Assembly (NCBI GenBank): GCA_050084515.1
Contig: CM114271.1
Span: forward strand, 1,984,001 to 2,048,000
Reading direction: 5' to 3'
Length of the DNA stretch: 64,000 nt
From: Blasia pusilla
Lineage: Eukaryota
Within the stretch, counting starts at the first letter, position 1. The number at the start of each line of letters is the position of its first letter. Made by a program: the position numbers and the translations under genes. The notes under the pieces are model-generated. The model was given only the letters and a program-made list of their open reading frames with translations. It searched no databases and was not told the origin of the DNA. This document shows, piece by piece, positions 19,608 to 58,347 of the stretch.

Positions 19608-20121
19608 TGTCACAGCTGTTAGGATAGATCGGCAAGATCTAGTAGAGCGCCTTTGGAGATGCTAGAGGACAGCCCTAGGAGGTCGAGGATGACCTTCTTG
19701 GGCCTTGGGTAACCTGAGAGAACAAGTTTTCCCTTCGTTTCGGCTCATTTGGAGCCATATAGAGAAACTTACTATTTTGGATAAGTTTCCATTTAGAATA
19801 TAGTTAACTTTCCACTTTTTTTAATGGCCCTTGACCCGCTACAACAAGTCAAGAGCCAAGGAGATGACCTGCGAGCACAAGTTACAATGGAGAGGACTTA
19901 AGAGAGGGAAGGGGGTATACCTCGAAGAGAGAGAGCTTGAGAGCTCATTCTCTCTTTGTTGAACCTCTTGGCACGAGGTGGCGGAGCTATGGTCCCTTGC
20001 CTTTTGAGTGTAACCCAAGCCTCTCATTAGGAGAGTGGGTTTGGTTTGACATTGAGAGAGACATGTGAGAGTGCACACATGTTAGAGCTATGGCGTTGTG
20101 AGAGAGATTTGACCTTATTTT
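19608..20121 (+). repeat. Repeat A1 (5' terminal repeat, about 514 bp)
   Basis: Direct repeat of 27527-28044 and inverted homologue of 53819-54333. Homology ends at GACCTTATTTT, after which unique leader follows rather than module C. Confidence 0.9.
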
Positions 20122-20777
20122 ACAAAGACAAAATGAGAGGGTGAGAGAGCTTAAATGGAGGAGCTCACTGGTTACTTGTTGTTAGTGCGGCTGGGGGCCG
20201 TGTTTCCCATTTAGCGGCTCATGGGAGTGCTCAGCGGAGTAAGCGCTACGTGTTTTACTATTTTCCATTGCGGATTTTCTGTGTGGAAGAGTGGCGCACG
20301 GAAGCGCTGCCCAAATTTCTTTAGAGATGAAGTTTGGGGGCGGATTTCCCCATTCTAGTGCTCTCGGGAGAACCAAGTAGCTTGCTAGTTTGTGATTTTA
20401 CAGGTCTGAAGTTTTGTGTGGAAGAAATTAGTGCAGAAGCGCTGCCAATTTTGTCCTAGAAGTGCAGATTTAAAGGGCTGCATGATAATTCCTATCAGTT
20501 TTCTTTGGGAAAGTTGAATGAATTTTTTTTTTGTCACAGATCTCAAAGCTGTGCACGTTATAGAAGAAATGGTGCCCAATTTTGAGCTGTGAGCAAAAAG
20601 TTATGGTTGATCTTGCAAAACTGCCATTGCTAGGCAAATTTTAGGGTAAAATTGTTCAAACCCTAAATGGTTTTCTAACACTGCTCAGAGCTGCGTTTGG
20701 ACGTTGTTCGTCGTTGGTTGCCATTTCCGTAATTTCCATTACGGAGAGGATGGTCTTCCATGATGACCGTTGATTCT

Positions 20778-21960
20778 ATGACAATCGTCTCTTCATTGGA
20801 TTGGTTTCCATGAATTTGGCCATCACCCAAGTTCTTGTCTGCACAAATACTACCATCTCACGAGCTTGTGCAAAAATCATATCCACCCATGGCCATTTAT
20901 CCCACTCTTCGCAGACTAGATCAAGAGAATGCGCTACATATCTACCCCAAAGATTATGAGGGAACTTTGCTTTGATAAGTTTCCGTGTTGCTCGCTCATT
21001 GCTAGCATTGTCTCTCATAAGTTGCAACACATTCTCTAGACCGATGCGCATGACAGTCTTCTCTATGTGACTTGCCAACCATACCGCCGTTGGGGATTTC
21101 CCTTTGGTGTCCATCGACTCAATCATGACCTCATCTTGTGGACAAGAGACCATTATGTTCACTAAAGACTTGCTCCTCACATTGGTCCAAGAATCCGTTA
21201 TGATCGTGGCTCCCAAACATAAATTTTCCAATATATTCCATCGATCTTTTGTTTCACCTTCCCCATATGTTTCTCAAGTAGGATGGTGCGCAACGAATTG
21301 TAACTAGGACATGAGTAACCCTTCACCTTGTTGTTGCCAATATTGCTTCTTTGAAAGCATCTTGCCGTACTACGTTGAATGGTATTCCACATTCGTAAAA
21401 ACACTTTGCCCACATGCCATTCGCAACTTCTATTCCTTGGATGTTGAAAGAATTCCTCAGATCAGTTGGCTTCTTCCCAGAACTACTACTCCCTCGAATG
21501 GGCCCAACAACTCCTCTGCATTCCTCGAGATTGTCACTCGATGGCATGTCCACAACCCCATCAATATTTTGTACAACATAAACACTATTCCTTGTTTGTT
21601 GCGAACCTATTTATAATGGAGTCGTCTCTTCCACTTCACTCAAAGGTCTCGCTTCCCTTCTTTGTCCATTTCCCACTAGTATCCTGTTTCGGAGATCCCG
21701 TTGCACGCTGGGAGGGACCTTCATCCATAATTTGGCATGATGGGTATCCTGATTCCCATCCTTTTTCTTCTGTCTCTCTCATGTAAAATGCTCCACCATC
21801 CCCGTGATATGATAGGTTTTCATAGAATAGGAACAATACTTGCACTGCCATCTGCTTGATGTTCCACCTTCCATCTATACTTCTTCCCAATGTTCCTTCA
21901 AAATCTGTTGGAGTTCTCTGGCTTTGGTCATGACTACATGCACTCACTAACCCCACCCAA
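20778..21960 (-). pseudogene. hAT transposase remnant (DUF659-type N-terminal catalytic region)
   Basis: WAKCFYECGIPFNVV, PSYNSLRTILL, GATIITDSWTNVRSKSLVNIMV, IGLENVLQLMRDNASN, YVAHSLDL, split across frameshifted ORFs. Confidence 0.85.
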
Positions 21961-22196
21961 AAATATTTGTAAAATTTGCAAAAATTTATTAGATCAATAT
22001 TAATATCTATCGATCAGTAAAATGTATGCAAATTATACCAAATATTGTCCGTAAATGCTCCAATAACAAAACTTGGAACACTCACTATGAACAAGAAAGA
22101 TTAATATGCTAACCTAGATAACCGAAATACCTTTAGTATCAAGGTTATCTGGTGGGAAAAAATATTCTCACTCATCAAGTTCAATTATCTATGGAG

Positions 22197-22231
<35 letters not shown>

Positions 22232-24745
22232 TGAAGGGAGGAATGAGATTGTGAGGGTATACAAAAATGAGCAAGTTTATATAGGGGAGGATAGAAGGAA
22301 GAGAATGAACCCTTCTAACTCCCCAAATCATCTACCCCCATTTACAATTGATTACTAAACCATCTCTATTAATTTTCTTTAATAAACCTATTTTTATTCT
22401 CCTATTAGATTCCTTCTTGACCTATCCTAACTTCTTGACCTAGTTTAAATTTCTAACAGACCTATTTTGCAATACAACCACCCTATTCAAATCTATTTTA
22501 ATACTCTCATTCCTTTCTCCACCACTACAATCCCAAATTCATCAATTACTCTCATTTCTAACTAACCTATATTCTCCTACAACAACCCTATTCCAACCTC
22601 TCAAACCGTCAATTACCCAAACCATAATAGTGACAAAATTTATTTAATACCTCACTAAAATCATAGGGCCCGCCTACAAGCCTGGCCCGCACGGCTTGCA
22701 AGGAGCCTGTGCACGGCCTCGCGCCCTATCTCGCATGCGGGCTCCAAGGCTCGTAAGCAGCATGCAGTACGGACCATCCGCAGACTCGGCCTCAAGGATG
22801 TGCTGGGCGCCCGCATGCAAGCGGGCCCTAGCTCAAGACGCCAAGGCCCAATGAGAGCCCGCACTATGGGCCTTGGAGTCCGCGCATAGGCTCTACGCGG
22901 GCTCTAGGGCCCGCAACTACCCCGCGTTTTCTTGCTCGGCGGTCCGCATGCGAGCCCACGCCGTAGCCCGCACCCTAGCCCGCAATGAGCCCGCGCGAGG
23001 GCTTGGCGGCTTGCATGCAAGCCCGTGCTGGGCTCCCAGGCCCGCAATCAACCCACACATGGGCTCCGCGGCCGCACCCTAGCTAGCATGCGGGCTCCCA
23101 GGCTCGAAAGCAGGCCGGGCTTCAGGGCCCACACCTTAGCCCGTAGACGGGCTCCAAGGCATGCCACCTAGCCCGCATGTGGGCTCGGCCACCCACAAGC
23201 AGCCCGGATGCGGGCTTCAGGGCCCGCACCCTAGCCCGCAACGAGCCCGTGCACAAGCTTCTAGCCCCACATCCTAGCCCGCACGCCGCGCTCGCTTGCA
23301 GTCTGCACCTTGGCCTATAACCTTCATCAGATCCCGCACCAGCGGCTTGCAAGTGGAGCCCGTGTGGTCGATCTGGGCACCATAAAAACCGGTGCTTGCG
23401 CCCGATGTTCCATGTCTGGACATGTCCGTTGTCGTGTCGAGAGCGTGTCTTTGAGTAAGGGCAGATCTTCTAGCTGCAGTAGACGTGGTTGATGCAAGTC
23501 AAACTCTATAATAATTTTTCCTTTTTCTATACAGAATTATTATGTAAACTCTTCATTCTCGCACGATAGGAATCACAAATGGTAGTGCAAAGGCGATCAC
23601 TTCTTCATAATATGGAACCTTGAAATTCATAACTATGAAATCTTTGTAAACTACTATACGTTTGTACACAAGGAAAATAGCACAACTAGTGTTAAACCCT
23701 ACTCGAGCAGGCCTATTGACGTCCATGGATAGCAATATAAGGACATACAAAGTGCAATCCCATGTCCTTTCGTACGTGACTATAGGAAAAATCATTGGAG
23801 TTAGAGATTGCATGACCTGGTTCATGAACACATCCCCAAAGTGATAAACTAGATAGCGAGTGAACCAGTGCCTATCTACAAAGAGAATCTTGACGTTGTA
23901 CGGGTTAAGGAAAGGAAAATCAGGCACAACTCGTGCTCCATCCTTATCCATACCTGACAAAAATCCTCTACTCTCCTCTACAATGGAATTTTCCGGAGTT
24001 GCTCTCCCAAGAGGGGTAATCCACTCTCATTGGGAAAATAAGAAGCCAAACCATCATCTATTTCTAGTATGACTAAACTCATCTAAGGTGACAAGTTTCT
24101 CATCTCCACACATACCACATTCTAGAAACCTCTCGAAGAATAGACCAAAGTCAAGTTACTCTCCCAAGAAGGATAATCCGCTCTCATTGGAAGAGCAAGC
24201 AATCTCAAAGCCATACACTCAAGAGAGAGACTCAAGATGTGAAGTAGAAGGTGATGAACCCTTGAAGGTCCCTTCTCTTAATATACTCACAAGGGATCCA
24301 CAAGAGTACGAAATATGGCTAATCTTATCTTGTGCCTCATGACTTCCTCTCAAGCCTTAGCCAATCATATTTTGACACAAGTAGATTACCTCTTATCTCT
24401 TCCAAAATATCCTCTTTTACTCCCTTCACATCTTCCAAACTACCCCACTAACCCTAGCCACCAACCAAGACTACTTTTGCTTTTATTTTATTAAATCATC
24501 AACCCCATTACTTTACTTTTCTAATCCCATCTTTTATTTATTATCTCTTTTTTCCTAAAGTTGGGCCCCCTCAAATAAATCACCCTAACGAGGTTTAAAC
24601 ATGAGAATTTTATTTTCTTAGGCTAATTTACTTAATACTAATAAAAATATTTCTAACACTTAATGATAGAGGAGTTTACATAGTGGGTGATTTTACTATA
24701 CGACATCGTCCCATGGACGGACTTATCCGTTTTTGTGCAACCTTG
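20778..24745 (-). mobile_element. Truncated hAT element nested in copy 1
   Basis: One TIR, GTGCAACCTTG at 24735-24745, identical to the MITE TIR at 32741-32751. GC-rich AGCCCG-type repeats at 22660-23400. Transposase remnant at 20778-21960. Confidence 0.7.
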
Positions 24746-24746
24746 G

Positions 24747-27230
24747 CGACATCTAGAGGAGGTGTTTCGACGATTGCAATTACATGGGCTGAAGCTACAT
24801 CTAGGCAAGTGCAAGTTCTTCTATGACCAAATTAAGTACCTGAGTTATATGATATACCCAGATTGCCTTGGTGTGCAACAGACGAAGATAGAGGCTATTT
24901 CACACATTCCACGCCCCTAAAGATGTATGTCAAGTTCGTGCATTCATGGGATTGGCGAACTTCTATCAACGGTACGTCAAGGGTTTCACTTCGATTGCGA
25001 AGCCGCTAACCTTACTGACCAAGGTGGATCAGGAGTAGCAACGGGGAATGAGCAGGAGGGAGCATTTAAGCTAGCTAAGGATATATTGACGTCCGCACCC
25101 ATATTAAAGAGACCGATCCAGGGGCGTCCTTTTCAGTTACATATTGATTGGAGCATGTTGGGGCTTGGAGCCGTGCTTATCCAGCATGACGATGAGGGTA
25201 GAGAGTTCGTGGTGGCTTATGCTAGTCGCTCGAACAACGCTGCCGAAGCGAAGTTTAGCTCGTATGAGGGTGAGTGCTTGGTTGCATTGTGGGCTGTCAC
25301 ACATTTTAGGTGTTATCTATTCGGCAACCCCTTTACCATCATTACTGATCATCAACCACTTAAATGGTTGATGGAGTCCGACAAGCTTAAAGGGAAGGTT
25401 GCGAGGTGAACTCTTTTGTTGTAGGAGTATGACTTCTAGGTGGTGCATAGACTTGGGATGCTCAAAGAGGAAGTAGATGGTTTGAGCCATAATCCATGCC
25501 TAAGTGAGCAAGATGCAACTAGAGCTTGTTAGCATGGTGAGAGTGATGAGGAGTTGGTGTCAAGATGGCACGGTTCAGCCTATTTGGGCTTGTTGGCTAT
25601 AGAGAGCCAGGTTGCTGAGACTTTGATCTGATGGAGAGTCATTAGATCCACATGCCGGTGAGGAGACAATAGGTGGCCGAGATATTCTCGACGATGGAGT
25701 AGTCTTGGAGTACCTACGTACTGGCAGCATTGCGAGCCATACAGTTCCGGTGGGAGAAGACACATGTATAGCAAGTTTGGGAGGATGGTAGAGTGCGTGT
25801 AGTGCCTCATCCTTTGCAAAAAGCACGTTTGGTGCATCATGCCCATGAGGAGTTGGATCATTTTGGAGTGACGCGGATGTATAGCTTGCTCCAGATACAG
25901 TATTGGTGGCGAGGCATGCAGACTGACATTCAGCAGTTTATTGCTGGGTGCGTGGTTTGTGATCGGGTCCGGGCATCGTTCAATGCTCTGACTCCATAGT
26001 TGCATCCACTTCCGATCATGGGTTTAGGTTATAGATGGAGTTTGGATTTTGCAAGACCTTTACCTTTGACAGAGCGCCATAGTCGTTATGTGTTGGTGAT
26101 GCTCGAGCACTTCTCAAAGTGGATAGAGTTGATTGCATTGCTTGACAAAGCAAGTGAGGGAGTAGCGAATGCCTTCCTAGATCAAATGCTGAGTTATTAT
26201 GGCGCACCAGTTGAGGTGTTGATAAACCAGGGTACAAAGTTTCGCGGGGAGTTTCAGTCTTTGTGTGATCAAGCGTTGATTGACCACCGCATCACTTCGC
26301 GAGATCACCGCATCACTTCCCGAGAGTTGTGAGAAAATAGAAAGTGCCAAAATCACTTAAATCTTTACAAAACTTAGAGATACAAAGTGGCTTAGTCCGT
26401 CTGTGCACTCACAGAAGAGCTTCTATGGAACTTGAACATGGAGATAACTTGACATACGAGAAGGCGCTACCGGTGCGGCTCCAGACTATTTCACTACTCG
26501 GGAAACTAGGGTTTTTACCTATTTTTCTTCGTTTCTATTAATAGAAATAAATAAAAATATAGGGTTAGATAATCCCACTTCCTGATGCAATATAGAGTTA
26601 GATAATCCTAGTAACACTACTCCTGAAATGACCTACGTCACATTACTATGACTCCTTCGACGTCTAAGTTAGAACCATCAATCTAGGCTTCTCCTCATAC
26701 AAGGGGGCCGATCAGATTAATGGTGCTGAGAGAAGTGGATGTTGAGAATCCAACAAGAGTGATGCCCATGGCATTTGACAACTTGGCGATTGCGCAACAT
26801 CAGGATACGTTGAGGTATGCGACTATTTGGGGAGGTAATTATCAACCTACTATGCGGAGGTTTGATTAGGGAGACTATTTCTACTTGCAGCAGACGGTAC
26901 CCATGACGTTGGATGTGACTGCGCACTATCTTGAGAGTGCGTGAGGTTTTGCCATATGGTGTCCTCTTATTGGAGGGACGCGATGGTATGGTTTGGAAGG
27001 ACCATGTGCATAATTGTGCACCATGTCACCCTCCTAACATTGACAGTACAGTTGATCCGAGCTTAGCACTAGTTCTTGCAGGCTTGCGATGTATGTTGTG
27101 TGGTTATGCCTGTGGTGCAGCCACTATGCTCGTCTGTGATGGCTGTTCGAGAGGATGGCATATGACATGTCTGATGACACCTCTCACTAGGGTTCCTCAA
27201 GGATGATGGATGTGTCCCAAATGTACATAG
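24747..27230 (+). pseudogene. pol remnant: RT C-terminus, RNaseH, integrase and C-terminal PHD finger
   Basis: RHLEEVFRRLQLHGLKLHLGKC; FQLHIDWSMLGLGAVL...VAYASRSNNAAE...YEGECL...ITDHQPL; integrase HHCC (HAHEELDHFG...CVVC) and core WSLDFARPLP...EHFSKWIE; PHD CMLC...MLVCDGCSRGWHMTCL...WMCPKC. Many stops, and a foreign insert at about 26325-26740. Confidence 0.92.
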
Positions 27231-27396
27231 AATAGGTAGTTCTAGATTTTGACTTGTGTCTATGATAGGGATGACAAGAAGGCGACTAACGAGCACCCAA
27301 CCTTTTTGCTTTTAGCGTCCGAGAGATGTATGTCATGGTAGGTAGGGATAGATGGCTATCTAGAGTTATAGAGACCTGACCACCAAGTAGGGGTTG

Positions 27397-27524
27397 ATTG
27401 GAGATATTTTGGTACTTCTTGTCTCGTTGTTTGGATGCCATGAAATAGCATGGGATCTTGTGTGTTTGTGTGTATGTTTGTTGACAGCGATGTATGTTGT
27501 GTAGCGATATATATGCGCATGACA
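27397..27524 (+). repeat. Repeat C1 (128 bp), preceded by a G-rich PPT-like tract and ending CATGACA
   Basis: Direct repeat of 28045-28172. Upstream is TAGGGGTTG (TAGGGGGGCG in copy 3). Confidence 0.88.
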
Positions 27525-27526
27525 AC

Positions 27527-28172
27527 TGTCATGACTGTTAGGATAGATCGGCAAGATCTAGTAGAGCGCCTTTGGAGATATTGGAGGAGAGCCTCATGAG
27601 GTCGAGGATGACCTGTTGAGGCCCAGGGTAACGTGAGAGAGAAGGTTTCCCCTTCGTTTCGGCTCATTTGGAGCCATATAGATAAAGTTACTATTTTAGG
27701 TAAGTTTCCATTTGGAATATAGTTGACTTTCCACTTTAGGAGGTGACCCTTGACCTGTTACAATAGGTCAAGAGCCAAGGAGGTGAGGTGCAAGCACAGG
27801 TTATCGTGGAGAAGACCTGGGAGAGGGAAGGGGGTATACCTCCAAGAGCGAGAGAGAGCTTGAGAGCTCATTCTCTCTTTGTTGAACCTCTTGGCACGAG
27901 GCGGTGGAGCTATGGTCCCTTGCCTTGTGAGTGTAACCCAAGCCTCTCATTAGGAGAGTGGGTTTGGTTTGACATTGAGAGAGACATGTGAGAGTGCACA
28001 CATGTGAGAGCTATGGTGTTGTGAGAGAGATTTGACCTTATTTTATTGGAGATATTTTGGTACTTCTTATCTTGTTGTTTGGATGCCATGAATTAGCATG
28101 GGATCGTGCGTGTTTATGTGTATGTTTGTTGAAAATGATGTATGTTGTATAGTGATGTGTATGCGCACGAAA
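27527..28172 (+). repeat. Repeats A2 (27527-28044) and C2 (28045-28172), the 3' terminus of copy 1
   Basis: A2 starts TGTCATG two bases after the CATGACA of C1. The A2|C2 junction is GACCTTATTTT|ATTGGAGAT. Confidence 0.9.
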
Positions 28173-28174
28173 AC

Positions 28175-29097
28175 TATCGTGCGCCTACTCCCTTGAACGT
28201 TAGTCTTATGTATTGCGAAAGCTTGCGTTCAATTAACAAGTAATACCCTCCTTATTAATCTGCACCCAAACACTCTCACATTAGCCCCAATTTTCATCTC
28301 TTGAGTCTTGGTCTCAAGTCATCCTTCAAGCTCAACCAATCTAGACGGGGTGAAATCTTTATTGATCTTACCCTCACTCCCCAACACAAGTAAGTCCTTC
28401 AATACTTGGGAGAGACTTCCTTGATAGTCTAGGAACCTAAAGTAGCAGCGGCGTGCCATTTGCCAAACGGTCCTAACTGCCCAATAGATCTCGAATGAGT
28501 CTCTAACCATGACTCAATATTTGAGTCATGGATCAAGGTCTAAGGTTGGTGTCCATAACTGGCCCACTCGGACTTGGATTGATATTCAAATCCTGAAGTT
28601 ATTCTCTCAATCCATCCCGTTCCATTGGTTCACCCCCATACCACTCCTTATGATCCTCAACCCAACTATCATTTTGATAGCTTGGGCATGGTTTTTAGAT
28701 CTCTCCTCATGCGTTTGTTTGGATTTTTAGTGCATTGGAATTTTCTTCTCATAACCTTTCCAAATGCCACCTAATTCACCATAAACCCAACTTTGGTCCA
28801 GTCGTTAAAACCTCAAACATGGAGAAACCCAAATGCTCAATCAAGTTTCATGCTAGGTTGAAGTCCCTTTTGCGCCCAACTCTTGTGGGACTTTAGCTCT
28901 TCTCAAATGTGGCTTGAAGTTTGGTCTTTTTCAACTAGGTTACGACCCCCATCATTTGAAATGCCCATCAAGGATCATGTCTCACTTCTATGACTCATGT
29001 CTCACTCATAAGACTCCGACGCACTTCCATCTGAGTGTGAGCTACTATAGTTTTGATGTTCCACGTTGGCACCTGTTTGGTTATGAGGGTTGTAATA
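28175..29097 (-). mobile_element. Solo LTR of the chromovirus-like Gypsy family (reverse orientation)
   Basis: Both ends align with the ends of LTR 58348-59027. Its 5-bp TSD TGCAC is at 29098-29102 and at 19601-19605, split by the copy 1 insertion. Confidence 0.8.
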
Positions 29098-32503: not shown

Positions 32504-32751
32504 CAAGGTTGCACGGAAACAGAAAAGTTTGGACATGTTGCCCAGGTATCCTTGGCCCACATCCGAGCCTGCGTGTCGAGCCCATAGCGGGCACCCGATT
32601 GGCCGTGCTCGCATTGGTTTTTTGGCCCCCAACTAAGCCTGCCGTGGCATGCTTGCCTTGCGGCTTGTTGTGGGCCACAAAACCTTACGGGCTTGGCTAG
32701 CCCTACCAAATTAGCAGGATTGCAAACTAACTTTATCCATGTGCAACCTTG
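32504..32751. mobile_element. hAT-family MITE, about 248 bp
   Basis: Perfect 11-bp TIRs CAAGGTTGCAC / GTGCAACCTTG, the same as the hAT end at 24745. No matching 8-bp TSD. The right end abuts the truncated RT of copy 2. Confidence 0.75.
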
Positions 32752-33299
32752 CCAACCTCCACTAATCCATCCTCCAAAAGGTCCAACGTCCTACTCTGAA
32801 TCAGGTCCCTCTCCATATCACTATAGCGGTAGGGACGACGGAAGATTGGCGTATCACTAGCCAAATCAATCCGTATACTGGGTCCAACCAAAGCACCCAA
32901 CTCCTTCATGCTAAAGGCAAAACAACTCCTATAAGCACGAGGAACCGTGTCAGCGCCGTTTCTCACCTCCCGTAAGCTTGGGCCCAAGTAATGGCTCCCA
33001 AGTCTCCTCCACGGCACACTAGAGAGAGGACGACGCCATTGGTCGCTATGCAACCCCTCACAAGATAGTACACCCTTAGCTACACCATCATCGAGCAAAT
33101 AACTCCTCCACCAAAGATGAGCAACCAACTCCACATGCCCAGCCATTACATCCCATTTATTCCAAGGATGCAAAATACTACTCTCCTCGCCCCCAGCTGA
33201 TGCCTCTATCGTCTCGGTATCCATCGAGCTCATCACAAGGGGTGGAAGACCCACAGACATAGTCCCAAGTTGACGCTGCTCGGCCATACCAAGACTCAA

Positions 33300-34240
33300 A
33301 ATCCAGGTCAAACAATTCAGGTCCATGGCTTGACCCAACACATGTCGTCGTGAAGCCTCAGAAATGGAAGCAACCGTTGTCACACCAATAGCAAATCCCA
33401 TCGCACGCTCTCTCTCATCAGCGTTAGGCACCACCAACTATTGCACATGAGAATCCCATACAAGCCCAGGACCACCTTCCGTGTAGGCATGTGACGAGGG
33501 AAAACTCACAAATGTGGGTAGTGCCATCCTAGCCTGCCCCACACGATTCACCACTGCCATGGGTGACCGATCAATAACCCTCACCACCTGAGAAAGTCGC
33601 CCACTATCCAAGATACTATCCATTGTAAGGCAAGGATCCCACTGCACTGCATCATATGCTTGACGTAGAACCTCCCTAGGCAATAAGTTTGTCCACCACA
33701 AGCGTGGACGATGTGCACGCAAGCCAACTCGCGCTGCATCCAACAACACCACTAGTCCAATCCAAGACTGCACCTCATGAACACTCGCCATCATCGGGTC
33801 CAAGTGTCACCCAACAATGGAACATTCTCCAGAATGTAAGCTGGAGCACGTGCCTGATGAACCTGAAGATGTCGTAATACCGATAACATCTCCCAAAACA
33901 ATCAAGACCTAGGGTCGTGTAATCCCTCACCACGACCAGCACGTGTATGACCCTAACATGGCCATCCAGAAATCACCAAATCCACAAGACCAACCCTCTT
34001 AAGGTCTTGCGCCCCCAACAATGCAATGTGTGACGGCAAAGCACGCTGGTACCCACGAATTGCTAATAGCGGCAACAACTCAGGATATCTCCGCATCAAC
34101 TGACTGATATGTCGGGATGAGACTCTCTGGGCTGTCTCATCTCGCTCCACATACACGGATCTCCGCACAGGAATACCGGACTGCAACATTGTAGCCAAAC
34201 CAGTGGTAATCCCACCAAAGAGATCTAACACAGAAATGCC
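33300..34240 (-). pseudogene. DNA (cytosine-5) methyltransferase catalytic domain, DNMT3-like, inside retrotransposon pol
   Basis: Motifs in canonical order: I VLDLFGGI; II YVERD; IV VDLVISGWPC* (TAG, probably ex-CAG, giving PCQ); V GEGLHDPRS*LFWE; VI YILENV; VII-VIII LLDAARVGLRAHRPRLWWTNL; IX ERERAMGF; X SRRHVLGQAM. Motifs V and VI were hand-translated from 33955-33815. Confidence 0.92.
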
Positions 34241-34689
34241 CTCCGGCGGATATTGCCATACAATGGGTTTAGTATCCAAAGGGGATAACCCAAGTGGACC
34301 AGAAGTAGGAGTCCGCCGTGGGGCCTCCTCTTCCTCGTGAGGTATAAGAGCCTCACACCAAGCCTCCTACACTAGGCGATCAACCTCTTGCCGTAGTGCA
34401 CCGCCTAAACTCCAAAGTGGCACATCCAACGATGAGGATGCCACTGCTGCAAAACTAGGGACCTCCTCATGCACAGGAGAATCCATAGCAGAAACATTAC
34501 CCTCCAAAAAGTCTCCTGGCCAAGTGACTACTCCACTAAAACCAGCCACAGATGCTAACATCGTTGGAGAAGACCCTCCTGGTCGAGCCCCATAAATAAA
34601 TCTCACAGGAACTTGGCTCATACGTCCATCCCCGGACTGCCAACCAGGTCTATAAGACATTGTCTCAGTCCAGTAATCCATCTGAAAAC

Positions 34690-35000
34690 CCATCGGGTAC
34701 AATACTGCTCCTCCAACTAGTACATCATACGACTCGGCTGATGTGACCACTGCAGGTACTCCCAACCGGGAGCTATCAGTCGCATGATCTGGTCTCAACT
34801 GTATAGAAAAATTCTCCCGTATCATGAATTGAGACCTATCATTGGCTCCTCCAAGTGATGTTTGAATCTGGAATGGGCAAGGCTCAAGCTCTGACCTCCA
34901 AATATCCAAACCAATACATGTCGCCTTTCCCAACATCAAAGGTTGGGCACCAAAGTCTAACAAGACTCTATGTGGTCTATACACATGTCCTGTAGGACTC
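34690..35000 (-). pseudogene. Retropepsin-like aspartic protease domain
   Basis: VLLDFGAQPLMLG (decayed D-S/T-G) and C-terminal YDVLVGGAVL in ORF 35125-34367. Confidence 0.7.
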
Positions 35001-35819
35001 ACCAATCGGAATATCCCACTCTGGTTGTACAACATACATACACTAGGTGTAAGCCTCTCACGATCAATGGGCTGGTCGGGCTGGTAATGCATCCATCTTC
35101 GCCGCTGCTGCCTGCCAAGTAGCACTGGTACTCAATGCTACACTTGACATAGAGGGTCGCTCCACCGCAACACCCTCATCCACCTCAACACGTATAGTAG
35201 TAACACCCCCACGTTCACACAATGTGGCTGCTAGCTGAAATATAGGAGCTAAGTCAACTCCTAAAGCCATCAGTTCCATGGCCGAAAACAATGGGGATCC
35301 CAACACGGTTGCCATCCGCATATCTGATCGATGTCGATCTGTGTCTACTACACGCGATGTAGATGCCTCAATCCCCACTGTCGGCTCAATAGGATGCGTA
35401 GGAAGCATGGATGGAGTCCTAAGCACCTCAGACAACAAGAATGACTGGGGAAGCCTAGCGTGCCTCCCAGCCTCATCCCTCTGTGGGTCCAACTCTATAG
35501 TAGCACCACGTGGCTCTGATGCTCGAGTGGCTCCTCTCGTAACTGCAGCTCATGCCTCAACTTGTGCTGCACTCGCCATATAAGAGAGATCATCCCCTCC
35601 ACAAGAGGTGGGAGCCCCTGCTCCCGAATCTGATCTATGTTGGATACCAGCCATAGTAGCCAACTTTGCTCCAATCGCCAATCATGGCGACCATAGTTGA
35701 CTCTGAGTAGTGGTAGGGGTAGCCACCGTGAGGCTCTCCAACCACTAGTCCACCCCTACCACCTCTACCACCTCGGCCTCTCTGAGTTACTCTCCACCAT
35801 GCCGCGGCGGCCTCGATCT

Positions 35820-36950
35820 CAACTCGATGAAGATCAAAGCAACGCCTCGAGGATGGCCTGGTCTCCCGCAATGATCACACTAAGTTGGGGCCGATCGAGG
35901 CCCATCCTCCAAAGTCCGTCTCCCATCCTCTTGGGGACAAAACCTCCTAACATGATCACCTCCACATGTCCAACATGATCGCCCTTGCTGCGGGGCAGCA
36001 AATGAAGGCAATGGTCTCTGCGCAAGTGTCCTCTAGGACTGGACCGAGGTCGTGTGTACCCCAGACTCCCACTACTACTACCACCACCACCACTACTACG
36101 AGATCGTGAGGTGGGTCACGAACACGAGAAGTAGTAGTTGTATCCCTCTTGAATGCGGATGTCACCACTCTCTCCTTCACCATGTTAAGCTCAATCTTCT
36201 CAGATAGAGCAAACACATGGGTTAATATGGGTGAATCATCACTCATAAGAGTAGCATCACGTACCCTGCGGCGCAACTCTGTGTCCAAGATCCCATACCA
36301 AAACTGGACTGCCTAAGCCTTAGTCACACCCTGGGTAACTGAAATCAAGCATTGCATACGAGTGTATGCCTCACGAAGACTCTCACCAATCTTTCGCTCA
36401 AATTCCTGAAGACTCCTCAACTTCTCTGTCTTCACTCCCTGATAGTTCTTCTTCAACCTCTTGAAGAACTCTGCAATCGGGCTGAACGATGGTGGGGCAC
36501 TAGTACCTCAACTAGTACCCCCATTGGTACCTCCTTGGGTACCTCCACTAGTACCCCCACTCCGGCTTGTACTCGTACCACTCAACGTCGGGATGGCTGG
36601 CATAGTAGGAGCACTACTATCAATACCACCATGGGTGATAGACACATAGCCTGGAGACCAATATTGTCTCCACGCCTCAATCTCAGCAACATGGTCCTTC
36701 CTAAACTCATGGTAATCATCCATGGGTGGTCCCTCCAGGTGCTGAAACAACCCCTTCCAAGCCAAGAAGGGTGTAAACAACGTGGTGTTCCGCAACATCT
36801 ACATATCACACCACGTATCAAACTCCTGCATGAAGTCCTCCAACTCAATGGTGCCCACTGCACTCGAGTATCGTTGTGGGCCCGTCCATGTCCCAAATCA
36901 ATGGAGCTGCAACACTCGATAACAACGTAGAAGACTCGGTGTTTGGAACA
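35820..36950 (-). pseudogene. gag remnant with two zinc knuckles
   Basis: Hand translation gives CWTCGGDHVRRFC (about 35975-35935) and CDHCGRPGH..CFDLH (about 35880-35825, frameshifted). A capsid-like helical ORF lies upstream. Confidence 0.7.
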
Positions 36951-39900
36951 CCCTCGTCCTCCTCTTCATCAACCATCGGAAGTGGAAAAGGTAGTCGATA
37001 CCTCAATCCACTCCATGTAAAACCATCACTGTCCGCACTACGGTCGCCAACCAGACCACCAGACACCTTCGTGATGACCAACGCCGATGCCGCACCACCA
37101 CCAAATTACCACCACTAAGTAACCAAGTGACGTCGATGTCGCTGTACTATTCTAGCTCTACTAGCTATGGGTGTAGGCAACCTAACCTGTCATCACCACA
37201 AGAAGCCTCCCAGAGTCCACTGGTCATCACTCCAACCTCACTACCGGTAGCACGCAGGAGTAACACTACTCTGGAAATCAGCGTCAACCCTAATAATAGG
37301 CGCGCAAGCAAGAAGCAACGATGGAGGGGATCCAAACACAGGAAGTCCAACGACAACCCTCCAATCGCAAATGGAAATCAAGGTAACACAATCCACCAAA
37401 CGTGGCGTCCCCTGAATCCACATAACCCACCACACAATTCTAACGCAATAGCTACTCCGCTGCGGGTGCTAGTCGGACTCGCAGCACCTGAAAATATCAC
37501 CTGCATGGAGAGGCTACACCGTACTATGCGCTAGAGGTCCATCAACCAAAAACCTAAGATGCATAAAGCGCCTAACACATCTCCGGACAACACCAAATGA
37601 GCTACACCAGTGTGTACACTGGCATAGTTAAGAACTCAGCAGTTAAGCGACTTCCAGGCATAATAGCCCAAAGATGGGTGACCAGTTATGCAACACTCAA
37701 AGCAAAATCATGCAAAAACTGCCTCCTTGCTCCTTACTCTGCCTCTCACGCCCACTCGCCCCGAGCTACCATGAGTTGCCTCAAAGGCTTGAAACGACAT
37801 GCTCAAGACATGCCCCTATTGCGCCCTGTTAGCCACGCTTTGCTATGGAGAGAGGCCCAACCAGGGCATCTCCAGCGGGATAGGCGTCTCCAACAACAAA
37901 CAAGTCACCAACCAACCAGCCCCTCTAATCTGCTGTCCACCATAGCAGACCTTGAGCTAGTCCGCAAAATTTTGACCAGCAATTACTCCACAAATCCTCA
38001 ACCAAAATTGAATCTATTTCGACCAGAATTCAATTGATCACCATATTCCATACTTGCATATTGGCAGCGTCGCAAGCACAATGGGTGCTAGAGAGCGGGA
38101 TCGGATGTCATGCGAATCCACATCATCATACAACATACATCGTTGACATACCAGACTCACATACATACATAACATAGACGAGAGCATACACAAACACAAG
38201 TGTACCACAACTAAAATCCGTGAAAAACCTATTGTCATAAAACACGTATAGAATCACATACAATTGAGCCAAACCCACTCCGAGCTAGTCTGCAAAATTT
38301 CGATAAGCAATTTCTCCACAAATCCTTAACCAAAATTGAATCTGTTTTGACCATAATTCAATTGACCACCATAGCTATCTCTCCACAAAAAATCAGCTAC
38401 CACCAAGCTCTATACTCTGAGCTAAAAATCAGACAAACTTGCTGTCCATACACCTCCAGAATCGCAAATCCGACAGCGCTTCCACCCAGATTCATGCACG
38501 CAGAAATCCGCAACGCTCCACATACTCAAGCAAATAGCTTCACATGAGATCACAATACAAGTAGTAATAGGAACCTCTCACCCAATCTGGATGAACTTCA
38601 ACAAAGCTTCCGCACTCCAAGCTCTCCACATCAGAAAACCGTCGAACACGAACCAGAATCTTCAATCCTTGATAACTTCCAACTCCCTTGACGAAATCCG
38701 GCGATCTACAGCGCGTTGGAAAGCTCTCAGCAAGGCACTTTTTTCCCAACCAACCACGCACTAGATTCCCAACTCCAACATAGGCCACAAGCCACGAACA
38801 TCCACGGCTGAGTACACAATCAGCCCTAACTAGATCCTACTGATCCACAATTGAAGCTACCATCGATCTACTCTAGTTCTTTGAGTGAAATCCGTGAAAG
38901 ACCTAATGTCATAAAACACGTATAGAATCACATACAATCGAGCCAAACCCAGTCCACAATGGGAGAATCCAGGTCGAAGCTTGCGGGAACCACCATAGCC
39001 AAGAGCTCTACTCACTACCAAGGCTAACTCCCAACGCAACAGGCTCAACTCAAAGAACTAACTGTTCTTTGAGTGCACTCCACACTATATCCTCCAACCT
39101 AAGAGCAGGCCCTACTGGAAAAGTCAGCCTCAATGGAGTAACCCCCAGCCCTATGTATGAAATCGCATCTCTACCTAGACACTACGGCCCTACATAAGGT
39201 ATGGCCTCTACTAGCACACTATACTCTACGACATAATCCGTATGGTCATGACAGTGGTCACACAATTATGTGTATTGAAGAAAATTTGTTGGGAAAAATT
39301 GAATCTGGCGAGAAGAAAATCCGCGCAAATCCGACTGGTGTTAGAATTTTCTCGCTAAGCTGCATGTTGGTAGATTGTGCGTAGGGCTCAAGCATGCTAT
39401 CTCATCACACATAAGGACAATCAGAGTTGCTACCAGACTCATGGCGCAATCCCGCTCGATTGGGATCTCTACTGATGCGTGCAAGACACCCATGCACTCT
39501 TCTCAGAGGCACGCATCCTCATTCCTTCAGCTAACACTTCCCAAACAGGATCAAAAATATTTTGGCCAAGTGAGTGTGGGCGAGTACAAAGATCACTAAC
39601 CAACTCATATATTCACAAATAACTCAAAAAATACCATATTAAATATTATGCTTTATAATGTGTGGCACATTCTCTTTCCTAGAAGTAGCTGCGATCAAAG
39701 TTTCCTCGCCACACCCTCCTCCGATAATAGTAGCTACCCCGCTGCCACTTACTCTGGTGTTAGAATGATGCCTGGGTTGCCACTCACTCCACGTGGTAGT
39801 CAGCTCACTTCCACTCCACAAGAAACTCTATTTATCAGCACTCATGAAGATTCGAATGTTAACAGATGTGTGCCTCCAACAAGACGCGAGTTATAGGTAA

Positions 39901-53714: not shown

Positions 53715-56700
53715 TATCATACGCATACACATCGCTACAAAACATACACACAAACCGGCACGATCCCATGCTAACTCATGGCATCCAAACAACGAGACAA
53801 AAGTACCAAAATATCTCCTAAATCAAGATCCAATCTCTCTCAACACCATAGCTCTCAAATATGTGCACTCTCACATGTCTCTCTCAATATCAAACCAAAC
53901 CCACTCTCCTAATGAGAGGCTTGGGTTACACACACAAGACAATCAAGACCATAGCTCCGCCGCCTCATGCCAAGAGGTTCAACAAAGAGAGAATGATCTC
54001 TCAAGCTCTCTCTCCTTGAGGTATATCCCTCCCCTCTCCCAAGATCTCTCTATGGTAACCTATGCTCCAAAGTCACATCCTTGGCTCTTGATCTGATGTA
54101 GGAGGTGAAGGGCCACTAACCAAAAATATAAAGACGACCATATACTCAAAATGGAACTTACCTAAAATAGTAAGTTTCTTAATATGGCTCCAAATGAGCC
54201 GAAACAAAGGAGAAACTACTCTCTCAGGTTTCCTGGGGCCTCAATAGGTCATCCTCAACCTCATGAATCTGTCCTCCACTACTCGCAAAGGCGCTCTAGT
54301 AGATCTCACCGATCTATCCTAAAAGACATGATAGATGTTGTGCGCTTACACATCGCTACATAACATATATCGCTGTCACCGAACACACACATAAACACGC
54401 ACAATCCCATGCTAACTCATGGCATCCAAAAAATGAGACAAGAAGTACCAAAATATCTCCAATCGCCCCCCTAGCTGGTGGTTAGGTCCCTCTAACTCCA
54501 AATAGCCATCTATCCCTACCAACCATGACATACATCTCTCGGACGCTAAGAGCAAGAAGGCCGGGTGCTCATATGGCCCCATCGTTAGTCGCCTTCTTGT
54601 CATCCATATCACAGACACAAGTTGGAATGTAGAATTATCTACTCTATGTACATGTGGGACACATTCATCGTCCTTGAGGAACCCTAGTGAGAGATGGCGT
54701 CAAGCATGCCATATGCCATCCTCTCGAACATCCATCATAGACTAGCATAGTGGATGCACCACGGGCAGAACCACACAACATACATCGTAAGCCTGCAGGA
54801 ACTACTGCTAAGCTTGGATCAACTGTACTGTCAATGTTTGGAAGGTGACACCGCACACAATTACGGACATGGTCCTTCCAATAAGAGAACACCTGATTCC
54901 AAAACCTCACGCATTCTCAAAATGGTGCGCCCTGCAATCACATCCAATATTGTGAGTGCCATCTGCTGCAAGTAGACATAGTCTCCTTGATGAAACCTCC
55001 GGATAGTCGATAACTATCCCCTCGAACAGTTGCATAGCTCAATGTATCCCGATACCGCACAATCGCCAAGTTCTCAAATGTCATGGGCATCACTCTCCAG
55101 AATAACTCAACCCTCTATGAATATGCTCTCATCCATACATCACGATCATCAAGGTTCAATACCTCACCAACATATCGACAAATGGCCGTAGGTAAATCTG
55201 GCTCATGGCTATAAAGCAGCAAATACGGTGAGAAAGACGCTAAGGATGCATGCCTGCTAAATCTGTATCCCATCGCCAACCACGGCAACTGAAGGTCTCA
55301 ATCTTGTCAGTGACCTCTTTGCAAGGCATACTTGCGTAATCCTCTCTTCACGGTCTGCACAACCCTCTCCGCTAGTCCATCCGCCTCAGAATGATCTCGC
55401 AAAGGGGTGCGGTGGTCGATCAGTGCTTGATCACACAAGGCCTAAAACTCCCCGCAAAAATCTGTACCCTGGTCTGTCAACACCTCAACTGGTGCACCGT
55501 AATGACTGAGCACTTGATCAAGGAAGGCATACACTACTCCCTCACTCGCTTTGTCAGACAATGCCACCAACTCTATCCACTTCGAGAAGTGCTCGACCAT
55601 CACCAACACATAATGACTATGGCGCTCTATCAAAGGCAAAGGTCATGCAAAATCCAAACTCCATCTATAACCTAAACCCATGATCGGAAGTGGATGCAAC
55701 TGTGGAGTTGGAGCATTGAACGATGCTCGAACTCGATCACACACAATGCATCTGGTAACAAAGTGTTGAACGTCAGTCTGCATGCCTCGCCATTAATATT
55801 GAATCTGGAGCAAGATGTACGTCCGCTTCACTCCAACATGATCCAACTCCTTGTGGGTATGACGCATCCTACATGTAGTGTCCTACATGTAGGATGAGGA
55901 CACTACATCCTACATGTAGTGTAGGATGAGGGCACTACATGTGTCCCCTCCCACCGAAATCGTCTGGCTCACTGTAGGATTGAATCCCGCTCTCTAGCAC
56001 TCACTGCGCTCACGACGCTACCAGTACGTAGGTACTCCAAGACCACTCCATCGTCGTGAATGTCTCGGCCACCTGTTGTCTCCTCACCGGCCTCTGGATC
56101 TAAGGACTCTCCATCAGACCTTGCCATCGAATTCTCAGCAATTTGGCTCTCCATATCCAACAAGCCCAAATAGGCTAACGCATGCCATCTTGGCACCAAC
56201 TCCTCATCACTCTCACCATGCCAACGAGCTCTAATCACATCTTGCTGACTCGGGCATGGGTTTTGGCTCAAAACATCTGCATCCTGGTTGAACATCCCAG
56301 GTCTATGCACCACTTGGAAGTCATACTCCTGCAACAAAAGATCCAACCTCGCAAGCTTCCCTGTAAGCTTCTTGGACTCCATCAACCACTTAAATGGTTG
56401 GTGATCACTAATGATGATAAAGGGATTTCCGAATAGATAACATCTCAAATGTGCAACAACCCACACTGCAACCAAGCACTCACCCTCATACAAGCTATAC
56501 TTTGCCTCTACAACCTTTTTTGAGCGACTAGCGTAAGCCACCATGAACTCCCTACCATCATCGTCATGTTGGGTGAGCACGGCTTCAAGCCCCAACATGC
56601 TCCAATCGATATGCAATCGAAAGGACGCCCCTTGATCGATCTCCTCAATATGGGCACGGACGTCAATCTATCCTTGAGCATCTAAAATTCTCTCTCTTGC

Positions 56701-58347
56701 TCATTCCCCTAGTGCCACTCCTAATCCACTTTGGTCAGCAAGGTCAGCGGCTTTGCAACCGAGCTGAAACCCTTGACGTACTGTCAATAGAAGCTCGCCA
56801 ATCCAAAATCGACTCACATTTGTATAGGGTGGAATGCGTGAAATAGCCTCTACCTTTGTCTACTACACACAAAGGCCACCTGGATATATTGTATGACCCA
56901 AGTACTCAATCTGGTCGTAGAAGAACTCGGCACTTGCCTGGATGTAGCTTCACCCCATGTAATTGCAATCGTCGGAACACCTCCTCTAGATGTCGCTCAT
57001 GCTCCTCAACCGTGGCACTAAAGATTATGATGTCATCAATATAACACCTAGCAAAATCCAGACCTACCAAGATCCTATCCATGATCCTATGAAACTCATC
57101 CGGGGCATTCTTTAATCCAAATGGTAAGAACCGCCACTGGTACAAGCAATCCTTCTCGTGAGGATCGATGCCCCAAAATGCCGTCTTCTGCCTGTCCTAC
57201 AATCTGATAGGAAATTGATGATATCCGGCTCAAAGATCTAACAAATTGAAGACCTTTGCATGCCCAATAGCATCAAATATCTCCTCAAGAGTGGGCATGG
57301 CATACCTATCCGACTTCATCTGCCGATTGATAGGTCGGTAATCTCCACACATCCGCCTATCCATCCAGTTTCCATGCACATCCTTCTAGGCGGGCATGAT
57401 AGTGGGAGATGCATACTCTCCATGCAACATCTCCACTAGTCCTGCTCCAACCAAGTCATGGCTCCTACTGTGAATCAGAGCCCTCTCCATGTCACTGTAC
57501 CTGTAGGGTCGTCGGAAGATTGGCGTGTCACTCGACAACTCAATGCAGATCCTTAGACCCTTCAGCGTACCCAAATCATGCATACTAAATGCAAAATAGC
57601 TCCTATAGCTCATAAGGAATTAGTGTATCCAGTGCCGCTCTCCTCCTTTCAACTTAGGGCCATATCTAGCTTCCCAATCTCCATCATGACTACGGTAAGA
57701 CTCTCCGGCATGGGTGTCGGTGGTTGCTTTGGTGCAACCCCGTCTTGGACAACAAAACTCAACTGCTCCTCTATAGCCAATTGCAAAATCAGATCTCAAT
57801 GTGCAATACCTGCAACCACGCATGATGTTGTGGCTACCACCTCCTGGCGTACCCGCAAAACATCCGAAGAAGTCCAAGGGTGTCTCTCCCGATCACCCTT
57901 AGTGTGTCAATCTCCTTGGGTCTCGCCCCTAGCCACTGCCTCAACCGTCTTGTTAGGCATGGGGCTCACCAACGCAACTGCAGTGATCTTCGCATCCTCA
58001 AACGATGTTGCTCAGCTACTCCTAAGATGAAAATCCATGTCAAGCAATTAAGGTCCATGGCCTGACCCAAGACATGACGTCGTGATGCCTCTGATTGTGA
58101 TGGTACTATCGTCAGTCCTATGGGGAATCCCATAGCTTGCTCTTGCTTCTTGGAATTGGGCTCCACCAACCTCTGTTCCTGGTCATCCCAAACCAAGCCA
58201 GGCCCCGCCTCCTTGAATGCATAGGAAGCGGGAAAACTCACCAAAGTGGAAAAGGATGTCCATGGCATGCCAATCCTGTTGACTACAGTCCACAACGGTC
58301 GATCATTGTGCCTTATTGCCTGTGATCGACGGCCTGGATCCAATATT
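53715..58347 (-). mobile_element. DNMT/PHD Gypsy-like retrotransposon, copy 3 (3' part)
   Basis: Minus strand order: DNMT C-terminal half, RT, RNaseH, integrase, PHD, then C1 (ends 54336), a 2-bp spacer, A2 (54333-53819) and C2 (to 53715). Interrupted at 58348 by another Gypsy. Confidence 0.92.
54660..58345 (-). pseudogene. pol remnant: DNMT (motifs IX-X), RT, RNaseH, integrase, PHD
   Basis: EQAMGFPIGLT..SEASRRHVLGQAMDLNCL; YQWRFLPFGLKNAP...CYIDDIIIFS; HIDWSMLGLEAVL...SDHQP; VMVEHFSKWIE...VLTDQGTDF; CMLCGS...DGCSRGWHMACL. Confidence 0.92.

Follow-up and report, generated by a model that had tools for sequence, protein, structure and literature searches.

A decayed retrotransposon in Blasia pusilla and its bryophyte-type Gypsy family encoding a DNMT3-like cytosine methyltransferase

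The DNA analysed here, referred to as the window, is a stretch of 64,000 nucleotides of Blasia pusilla (contig CM114271.1 of assembly GCA_050084515.1, positions 1,984,001 to 2,048,000 of the forward strand), in which tblastn with the proteins of relatives revealed three fragments of a single retrotransposon family, designated copies A, B and C. Copy A, the main subject of this report, is a 5'-complete and 3'-truncated element of the Ty3/Gypsy type lying on the minus strand from about 39253 to 32736. It consists of a terminal repeat, a leader, gag with a CCHC zinc knuckle, a protease (PR), a C5-methyltransferase resembling the DNA methyltransferase DNMT3 and the start of the reverse transcriptase (RT), in this order, with coding homology running from 36897 to 32736 in tblastn. 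Of the coding part only gag, PR, the DNMT and the first part of RT are retained in copy A, and the Pfam order of Ty3/Gypsy elements (RVT_1, RT_RNaseH, Integrase_H2C2, rve) was found in copy B and in relatives. A preliminary description of this DNA had proposed a Gypsy-type element with a DNMT between protease and RT, which agrees with the results of Pfam, tblastn, profile searches and Foldseek. Of the extent given there, 32752-36950, the start is to be corrected, lying at 39253 and not at 36950, and at its other end copy A is interrupted within RT, at about 32736-32757 (in a public run, the contigs that belong to related copies diverge from the window at 32757). Position 39253 is regarded as the true 5' end because the terminal repeat of copy A aligns there, from a common TGTCATGACCATA start, with the corresponding repeats of three loci found in metagenome contigs (L006, L052 and L038; loci of this kind are labelled L, and proteins of the family P), the flanks upstream being unrelated.

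Small internal duplications were detected by self-blast in the leader of copy A (37954-38045 equals 38282-38373, and 38214-38281 equals 38888-38955), and the segment 37079-36900 is homologous to the leaders of the same three loci. Neither gag nor the protease of copy A matched a Pfam family; the protease of the relatives is PF13650, and its active-site motif reads LLDSGA in the relatives and LLDFGA in copy A (34963-34946). The RT start of copy A reads FAFSMKELG…FRRPYRYSDMERDL (32921-32736).

The methyltransferase motifs of copy A follow the order I-IV-VI-VIII-X, which is not permuted and is thus not the order of DRM enzymes, in which motifs VI-X precede motifs I-V. A full and non-permuted motif set of a C5-methyltransferase on the minus strand had already been reported in the preliminary description, and every motif named there was recovered in its place. 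The search with PF00145 proposed there, using the stop-corrected translation, was also positive: the N-terminal half (P0001, 34366-33796, stops as X) scored 29.4 bits against a gathering cut-off of 22 (E 7.3e-7), while the C-terminal half alone (P0002) matched no Pfam family and reached DNMT3B in PDB only at E 0.2. None of the nine separate stop-to-stop pieces matched PF00145 or another Pfam family, and the intact relatives P0007 and P0005 reached 35.6 and 35.1 bits; the scores are low, and the alignment is limited to the stretch from motif IV to motif VI. The best PDB sequence matches of the N-terminal half were tobacco DRM (E 2.9e-5) and DNMT3A (E 0.0016).

Copy A itself is a dead relic without function, and its value is that of a pointer to the family. 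From gag through the DNMT, the tblastn alignment to open reading frames (ORFs) of Marchantia polymorpha crosses a minimum of 12 stops and requires three changes of frame. Three in-frame stops (TAG, TGA, TAG) and a frameshift near 33800 fall within the DNMT: the TAG at 33955-33953 directly follows GWPC in place of the glutamine of the relatives, the TGA at 33904-33902 stands in place of the arginine of DPRSR, and the TAG at 33440-33438 again replaces a glutamine of the relatives. On the assumption of ancestral CAG, CGA and CAG codons, to which the residues of the relatives point, all three stops would be C-to-T changes. In one public run (X1), 44,948 short contig pieces, 95-100% alike, cover copy A (32736-36909), which suggests many close copies of its subfamily in the sample, the summed depth not being equal to a copy number. 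For three runs of possible RNA origin, gag, PR and the RT start were covered by 4-13 contigs and the interval 33016-34275 by none; these counts have no bearing on expression.

Table 1. Features of the three family copies in the window (positions are those of the window; RH, RNase H).
Copy	Feature	Position	Strand	Basis or remark
A	5' terminal repeat A1	38886..39253	-	terminus TGTCATGACC at 39253
A	leader / 5' untranslated region, about 2 kb	36910..38885	-	self-blast
A	gag, decayed	35847..36909	-	tblastn to P0007 residues 5-344, 59-68% identity, 4 stops
A	CCHC zinc knuckle CWTCGGDHVRRFC	35975-35937	-	motif position
A	aspartic protease region	34367..35131	-	tblastn to P0007/P0005 and motif position
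A	DNMT3-like C5-methyltransferase pseudogene	33270..34260	-	motifs, PF00145, relatives
A	motif I LDLFGG	34228-34211	-	
A	motif IV GWPC	33967-33956	-	
A	ILENVP (ENV, motif VI)	33835-33818	-	
A	motif VIII AHRPRLWWTNL	33716-33684	-	
A	ERERAMGF	33416-33393	-	
A	LGQAMDLNCLTW	33338-33303	-	
A	conserved in-frame TAG between DNMT and RT	33046..33048	-	context TAG CGA CCA
A	N-terminal RT fragment	32736..33000	-	tblastn to P0005 717-781, 79% identity, ending at 32736
B	whole copy	53729..58364	-	5'-truncated, different subfamily from A
B	DNMT C-terminal half	58364-57996	-	tblastn
B	RT	57676-56899	-	YIDDI at 57043-57029
B	RNase H		-	between RT and integrase
B	integrase	about 55900-55000	-	
B	PHD finger	54784-54650	-	PF00628, 26.2 bits, cut-off 24
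B	repeat B1	54463-54327	-	
B	repeat A2	54325-53819	-	
B	repeat B2	53826-53729	-	
C	whole copy	19608..28181	+	same subfamily as B
C	repeat A1	19608-20122	+	
C	RT-RH	24696-25610	+	
C	integrase	25733-26308	+	
C	PHD finger	27090-27224	+	35.7 bits
C	repeat B1	27394-27533	+	
C	repeat A2	27527-28045	+	
C	repeat B2	28042-28181	+	

The DNMT is an integral part of the element and not a captured passenger. With the C-terminal half and the RT start of copy A as the query, 27 longer proteins were found at E<=1e-3, the top ones being hypothetical proteins of M. polymorpha with 56-73% identity and E values down to 3e-115, followed by proteins of Calypogeia fissa and Sphagnum fallax. Since the N-terminal half passes PF00145 and the region matches Marchantia polyproteins at this level, the DNMT of copy A is more than a chance resemblance. 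A profile, A1, was built from an alignment of 12 diverse DNMT domains of the family and used for scanning JGI metagenome contigs, where 339 of the 507 pattern matches encode a relative; the metagenome loci discussed here are the best 80 of these 339. In all 19 long loci examined, gag and PR, the DNMT and RT are collinear on one strand as far as the contig reaches, and the full-length ones extend over about 7 kb to include RNase H, integrase and a PHD finger (for example L006, L025, L038, L013, L028, L027, L047, L060 and L065). The collinearity holds in three subgroups, with DNMT identities to the Marchantia domain of about 70%, 49% and 40%. Copy B offers a further instance within the window, its C-terminal half of the DNMT being followed on the same strand by RT, RNase H, integrase and PHD finger. 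It is therefore clear from the collinear loci and from the recurrence in copy B that the DNMT is a trait of the family and not a one-off, as had been claimed on the basis of this second copy.

An exhaustive profile search retrieved 17,774 proteins at E<=1e-3, 3,184 at <=1e-10 and 564 at <=1e-30, counted as cluster representatives at 50% identity; the best 150 are all of the transposon type, with at least 295 bits and with many of 1,000-3,400 amino acids. The cluster of P0007 at 90% identity, from M. polymorpha, has 18 members on autosomes and on the V chromosome. Five Marchantia ORFs of 1278-1281 residues are 95.5-97.8% identical and share one end point immediately behind the DNMT; the five DNMT motifs checked are kept in all of them, as is the protease motif, and the gag knuckle CWTCGG is matched in four of them. 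In a tree of 81 rows (IQ-TREE), copy A falls inside a fully supported clade of 11 rows together with Marchantia P0247, Calypogeia P0009 and metagenome loci, its nearest row being L025 with 74% identity. Two proteins of the family, P0072 and P0265, are filed in NCBI under bacterial metagenome-assembled genomes (Spirochaetia and Minisyncoccia); these labels probably reflect eukaryotic contamination of the bins.

With regard to the type of the enzyme, profile A1 ranked DNMT3A first among PDB sequences (89.1 bits, E 2.2e-24), followed by DNMT3C (80.4 bits) and DNMT3B (77.7 bits). For tobacco DRM (45.7 bits) and DRM2 of Arabidopsis (37.2 bits) the alignment covered the N-terminal half of the profile only, as expected of a permuted enzyme; M.HhaI (35.1 bits) and a DNMT2-type enzyme (34.9 bits) scored lower, and no DNMT1 or chromomethylase was found in PDB at E<=0.01. 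The AlphaFold2 model of the Marchantia domain (predicted local distance difference test 89.6, predicted template modelling score 0.89) was compared by Foldseek, and the rows listed, down to rank 50, were without exception DNMT3A, DNMT3B or DNMT3C, with TM scores of 0.79-0.83 on targets consisting of the catalytic domain only and E values of about 1e-19 to 1e-16; the ESM Atlas returned generic PF00145 clusters only. The resemblance to DNMT3 noticed earlier is thus borne out, and by ranking of scores, not by phylogeny, the family domain is closest to DNMT3. The host enzymes DNMT3A, DNMT3B and DNMT3C have the catalytic fold and the motif set in common with it, and their motif VIII region of the AAHRARYFWGNL type aligns residue for residue; the family domain differs from them in being embedded in a retroelement polyprotein and in lacking PWWP and ADD reader domains, none of which were found by Pfam in P0007, P0005 or P0027. 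Plant DRM, with its permuted motifs, aligns over positions 4-135 of profile A1 only, whereas the family domain is not permuted.

The boundary between DNMT and RT is marked by a stop codon. A WEPLIGP motif could be recognised at 24 metagenome junctions; 23 of these show an in-frame stop in one and the same column, with the contexts TAG CAA CCC (18 cases), TAA CAA CCC (2), TAG CAG TTA (2) and TAG CAA CCA (1), and only L037 has a tyrosine codon there; copy A contributes TAG CGA CCA to this alignment column (A*[QR]PMASS). In L006, L017 and L028 the frame of the DNMT is continued by RT beyond the stop, and the Marchantia ORFs of 1281 residues terminate within a few residues of this column. Longer Marchantia gene models (P0003, P0004 and P0005) skip the stop position, presumably by predicted introns that mask it. 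The conserved in-frame stop suggests that the DNMT belongs to the Gag-PR product and not to the part with RT and integrase, which modifies the earlier idea of an enzyme packaged with pol, and that the single open Gag-PR-DNMT-RT frame anticipated in the preliminary description is not the expected intact state in this clade. The sequence UAG followed by CAR YYA is known as the type I readthrough signal of plant viruses, as described in PMC11166343, and the conserved UAG or UAA in a CAR-YY context is a candidate site for type I readthrough in a plant retrotransposon. In L047 and L055 a further stop lies upstream of the DNMT, between it and PR; this stop was considered as a conserved feature and rejected, being a tryptophan-to-stop lesion at a position where L060 and L065 have tryptophan.

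The repeats of the family are not two identical long terminal repeats. They are split direct repeats of the form A1…B1-A2-B2, as seen in copy C, at the 3' end of copy B and in full in L047, L060 and L052, with the A1/A2 pair also present in L038, L006 and L065. In copy C, B1 is immediately preceded by a polypurine tract rich in G, and the termini of the element are TGTCA…GACA. A1 and A2 are 88-94.5% identical in the window and metagenome copies, which are therefore old. Repeats resembling those of DIRS and Ngaro, in combination with a DDE integrase, hint at an intermediate in the form of a circle that is opened at the B|A junction. From the relatives, the intact layout may be reconstructed as repeat A, a leader of about 1.2-2 kb, Gag(CCHC)-PR-DNMT, an in-frame UAG, RT, RNase H, integrase and PHD finger, a polypurine tract and B-A-B.

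Behind the integrase, copies B and C have a PHD finger (PF00628), as do 157 of the 195 integrase-bearing proteins collected. The algal relatives P0288 and P0300 carry both a chromodomain (PF00385) and PF00628, and several list a G-patch (PF01585). Chromoviruses are Gypsy elements with a chromodomain after the integrase; they likewise bear a chromatin-reader module at the integrase C-terminus, the reader here being a PHD finger instead.

Conservation of the domain was evaluated both by residues and by codons. In profile A1, the motif I glycines, C100 and Q101 of motif IV, E143 and N144 of ENV, R183, R185 and E281-R282-E283 are invariant in 12 of 12 rows, and P99 is at least 90% conserved; the loss of the catalytic cysteine or of ENV, named earlier as evidence that would speak against the proposal, is thus not observed. 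Nei-Gojobori proportions of non-synonymous and synonymous differences (pN and pS) were computed on codons mapped through tblastn. For near-identical DNMT pairs pN/pS is about 0.92-0.93, the mark of copies that decay neutrally once inserted. The median for the DNMT is 0.47 at pS 0.15-0.3 (760 pairs), 0.32 at pS 0.3-0.5 (31 pairs) and 0.21 at pS 0.5-0.65 (48 pairs). For the same pairs at pS 0.15-0.3 the medians are 0.46 for the DNMT (720 pairs), 0.41 for RT, 0.51 for gag and 0.62 for PR; at pS 0.05-0.15 they are 0.53, 0.47, 0.56 and 0.73, respectively, and at pS 0.3-0.65 they are 0.20 for the DNMT (39 pairs) and 0.15 for RT (2 pairs). The ratio for the DNMT is thus close to that of RT-RH and below that of PR. 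Copy A compared with its nearest loci gave 0.30-0.41 at pS 0.39-0.48, and compared with copy B over 106 codons it gave pN 0.228 and a saturated pS of 0.757. A neutral evolution of the DNMT domain, a further outcome that would have told against the earlier proposal, is not supported by these codon comparisons, in which the DNMT behaves like RT.

Across the wider family, the position of the DNMT varies. Among 336 proteins with any domain match (iterative HMM search), 213 have RT/RH before the DNMT, 71 have PR-DNMT, continued or not by RT and further domains, 42 have the DNMT only and 9 are without it; the complete form of the first order is PR-RT-RH-DNMT-INT-PHD (INT, integrase). Named hosts of the RH-DNMT-INT order are Monoraphidium neglectum and Haematococcus lacustris, the rest being unnamed metagenome proteins, and those of the PR-DNMT order are Marchantia, Calypogeia, Sphagnum, two Closterium species and one Haematococcus protein. 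No tracheophyte name occurs among the 27, 64 and 120 matches listed, which is weak evidence, as the candidates were picked by shared words. The two orders are separated by one branch in the quick IQ-TREE DNMT tree of 81 rows (SH-aLRT, an approximate likelihood-ratio branch test, 97); one change of order is needed in a FastTree tree of 180 rows, and two in a tree of 264 rows (238 of them labelled), or one if the long-branch P0071 is left out. A division into streptophytes with PR-DNMT and chlorophytes with RH-DNMT-INT was ruled out, since Haematococcus has both (P0343 with PR-DNMT and P0307 with RH-DNMT-INT). The algal RH-DNMT-INT relatives have a homologous DNMT of about 40% identity, the blocks AHRxRxxWTN, ERERAMG and LPTLVS being common to both, and the same integrase and PHD finger, although their DNMT is placed between RNase H and integrase and not between PR and RT. 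No paper describing such algal RT-RH-DNMT-INT-PHD elements was found in the literature.

Copies B and C add the 3' part that copy A lacks. The coding homology of copy B extends from 58364 to about 54640 on the minus strand, with Pfam scores of 83.3 bits for RVT_1, 41.9 for Integrase_H2C2, 47.5 for rve and 26.2 for PHD, and that of copy C, from RT through PHD, from 24696 to 27236 on the plus strand (both by tblastn). Nucleotide identity in shared DNA is 71-75% between A and B and 81-82% between B and C. Copy C was considered as a member without DNMT, and this was ruled out, the place of its 5' coding part (20122-24746) being taken by unrelated DNA. There, a hAT-type DUF659 fragment (91 bits, 20776-21273, minus strand) occupies the position expected for gag, PR and DNMT.

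The window as a whole is a dense nest of transposons of the CACTA, hAT, plain Gypsy (without DNMT) and Copia types. Remnants of a CACTA/En-Spm-type transposase lie at 5531-11353 on the minus strand (Transposase_24, weak; DUF4218, 90 bits). Another Gypsy element at 59985-61283 on the plus strand has a zinc knuckle and a protease (PF13975, PF13650 and PF08284) with RT following within about 350 bp and no DNMT, and a Copia-type gag/pol frame of 451 residues (Retrotran_gag_2, Pol_BBD) at 62126-63481 on the plus strand is the longest ORF in the window. Furthermore, tandem repeats occupy 14039-15340, with a period of about 330-340 bp and 66-76% similarity between the copies, and strong GC skew was seen at 12-14 kb of the window. 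A search of the window with Rfam gave no family.

Taken together, copy A is probably best explained as a dead copy of a Gypsy-type family that carries a DNMT3-type enzyme in its polyprotein and works by the following mechanism. Ribosomes would mostly stop at the UAG-CAR-YY site and yield Gag-PR-DNMT as the abundant product, and occasional readthrough would give RT-RH-IN-PHD (IN, integrase), so that the methyltransferase would travel with Gag and not with the polymerase; that a leaky stop places the DNMT with Gag-PR in this clade appears likely. The enzyme would then lay de novo 5-methylcytosine on the element's own cDNA or on a fresh insertion, and the PHD finger of the integrase would choose the chromatin for insertion; by methylation and targeting the element might set its own epigenetic state, in the sense of self-limitation or of mimicry of host methylation. 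That the enzyme is catalytically active and methylates the element's own cDNA or fresh insertion is a tentative proposal. Several observations weigh against this explanation. The loci were retrieved by DNMT motifs, and members without the domain are invisible to such sampling; aligned DNMT codons are free of stops in only 8 of the 80 loci, few long ORFs being kept; and the pN/pS pairs are non-independent and stem mostly from decayed copies. As to the stop, the exact CAR YYA consensus occurs in only 3 of 23 cases, most having CAA CCC, the copies with the 18 identical contexts are close relatives of one another, which leaves few independent events, and the lineage of about 40% identity is without the stop, the frame being open across the DNMT-RT junction in L047; nor is there a conserved PR-DNMT stop in L047, L060 or L065. 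In addition, the sequence following repeat A showed no recognisable primer binding site of the tRNA type.

Other explanations have to be considered for the same observations. A host DNMT3 gene or fragment lying by chance beside or in a retrotransposon, or a chimera of the assembly, finds its sole point in the window being a dense transposon nest and is vanishingly improbable: the same order and spacing recur in dozens of independent loci from several sources and in copy B, the DNMT is without introns, and it is in frame with the upstream protease and, across the single stop, with RT; copy B, the collinear loci and the shared frame refute it. The module could also be kept without being a working methyltransferase, as a domain for DNA binding or targeting or as a partner that recruits or modulates host DNMTs in the manner of DNMT3L. 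DNMT3L itself has lost catalytic residues, and a mere regulator would be equally free to lose them, yet none of the 12 diverse rows departs from the catalytic cysteine, ENV, the RxR of motif VIII or the glycines of motif I, and P99 is nearly constant, which makes this unlikely despite the GWECQ found instead of GWPCQ in some algal relatives (P0026 and P0027) and the low, partial PF00145 matches. The same possibility is favoured, and the proposed activity disfavoured, by the charophyte element KnitGypsy-Dnmt3, the only tested relative, whose domain according to PMC5890265 gave no detectable methylation in yeast, an assay in which human DNMT3B also failed and from which the authors therefore draw no firm conclusion. 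Finally, an active enzyme could have another target or benefit, such as methylation in trans of host or competitor DNA, defence against DNA viruses, as put forward in Morozov et al. 2019 (PMC6338049), or protection of the cDNA from host nucleases; a position on the abundant Gag-PR side of the stop would mean much free enzyme, but the CpG depletion of the family copies is ordinary and uniform (observed/expected 0.56-0.67 against 0.58 for the window), and we regard such a role as improbable.

Returning to the preferred explanation, of a family with its own DNMT3-type enzyme, a wider scenario may be outlined, rather doubtful as a whole. It would comprise an ancient Gypsy clade of the green lineage with a PHD-tipped integrase and split repeats, carrying a selected and catalytically competent DNMT3 that moved essentially once between the RH-integrase and PR-RT junctions, came to lie on the Gag-PR side of a leaky UAG in the bryophyte-type members and is still mobile in M. 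polymorpha, where the ORFs of 1281 residues are 96-98% alike and some lie on the V chromosome. If this were true, de novo cytosine methylation driven by a transposon would operate in a land plant and be open to dissection in a species amenable to genetics. Retrotransposons with a gene for the very enzyme by which they are normally silenced have been published as an oddity, Klebsormidium providing the one streptophyte example. M. polymorpha is a genetically tractable model plant, and the occurrence of the family in liverworts and a moss, with apparently intact and recently diverged copies in that species, makes the role of a transposon-borne DNMT3 directly testable. The PHD finger after the integrase, the DIRS-like split repeats and the conserved stop between DNMT and RT go beyond the preliminary description; the placement of the stop, the PHD-tipped integrase and the two domain positions offer hypotheses on the expression, targeting and modular evolution of accessory domains of retroelements.

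Retrotransposons bearing a DNMT are known from Symbiodinium and Klebsormidium nitens (de Mendoza et al. 2018, PMC5890265), a precedent rightly named in the preliminary description. According to that article, the SymbioDIRS-Dnmt3 domains methylate CG de novo in yeast and were the only active ones among those tested. SymbioDIRS-Dnmt3 and SymbioLINE-Dnmt of dinoflagellates likewise encode a cytosine methyltransferase, although they belong to different classes, namely tyrosine-recombinase DIRS and LINE elements (PMC5890265). The EpiLTRs (bioRxiv 10.64898/2026.05.21.726589) are also methyltransferase-encoding, with a DNMT described there as sister to DNMT4 and hence of different origin, and the SymbioDIRS, SymbioLINE and EpiLTR cases are presented by their authors as independent acquisitions (PMC5890265; 10.64898/2026.05.21.726589). 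In the accessible parts of PMC12344493 (2025) and of the preprint 10.64898/2026.05.21.726589 (2026), the streptophyte case appears only by citation of de Mendoza et al., and in the full-text literature no description of a land-plant or bryophyte family was found, although the supplements and figures of PMC5890265 and PMC12344493 may already cover bryophytes.

The closest known system is KnitGypsy-Dnmt3, compared here by its published description and not by sequence, no K. nitens protein occurring among the named matches of the searches for relatives. As described in PMC5890265, it has an intronless and non-permuted domain of the DNMT3 type in a Gypsy polyprotein, as found here, and repeats "the same as that of a DIRS retrotransposon", in the arrangement A-coding-B-A-B that is matched by copy C, L047, L060 and L052. 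Its DNMT is under purifying selection with Ka/Ks <0.2 (PMC5890265), and deep pairs of the present family have pN/pS of 0.20. The split repeat structure is taken as strong evidence of common descent with KnitGypsy-Dnmt3, whose host is a charophyte, whereas the hosts here are of the land-plant type, liverworts and a moss. The family adds land-plant, bryophyte-type members to the published Gypsy-DNMT3 kind, and the kind itself is not new.

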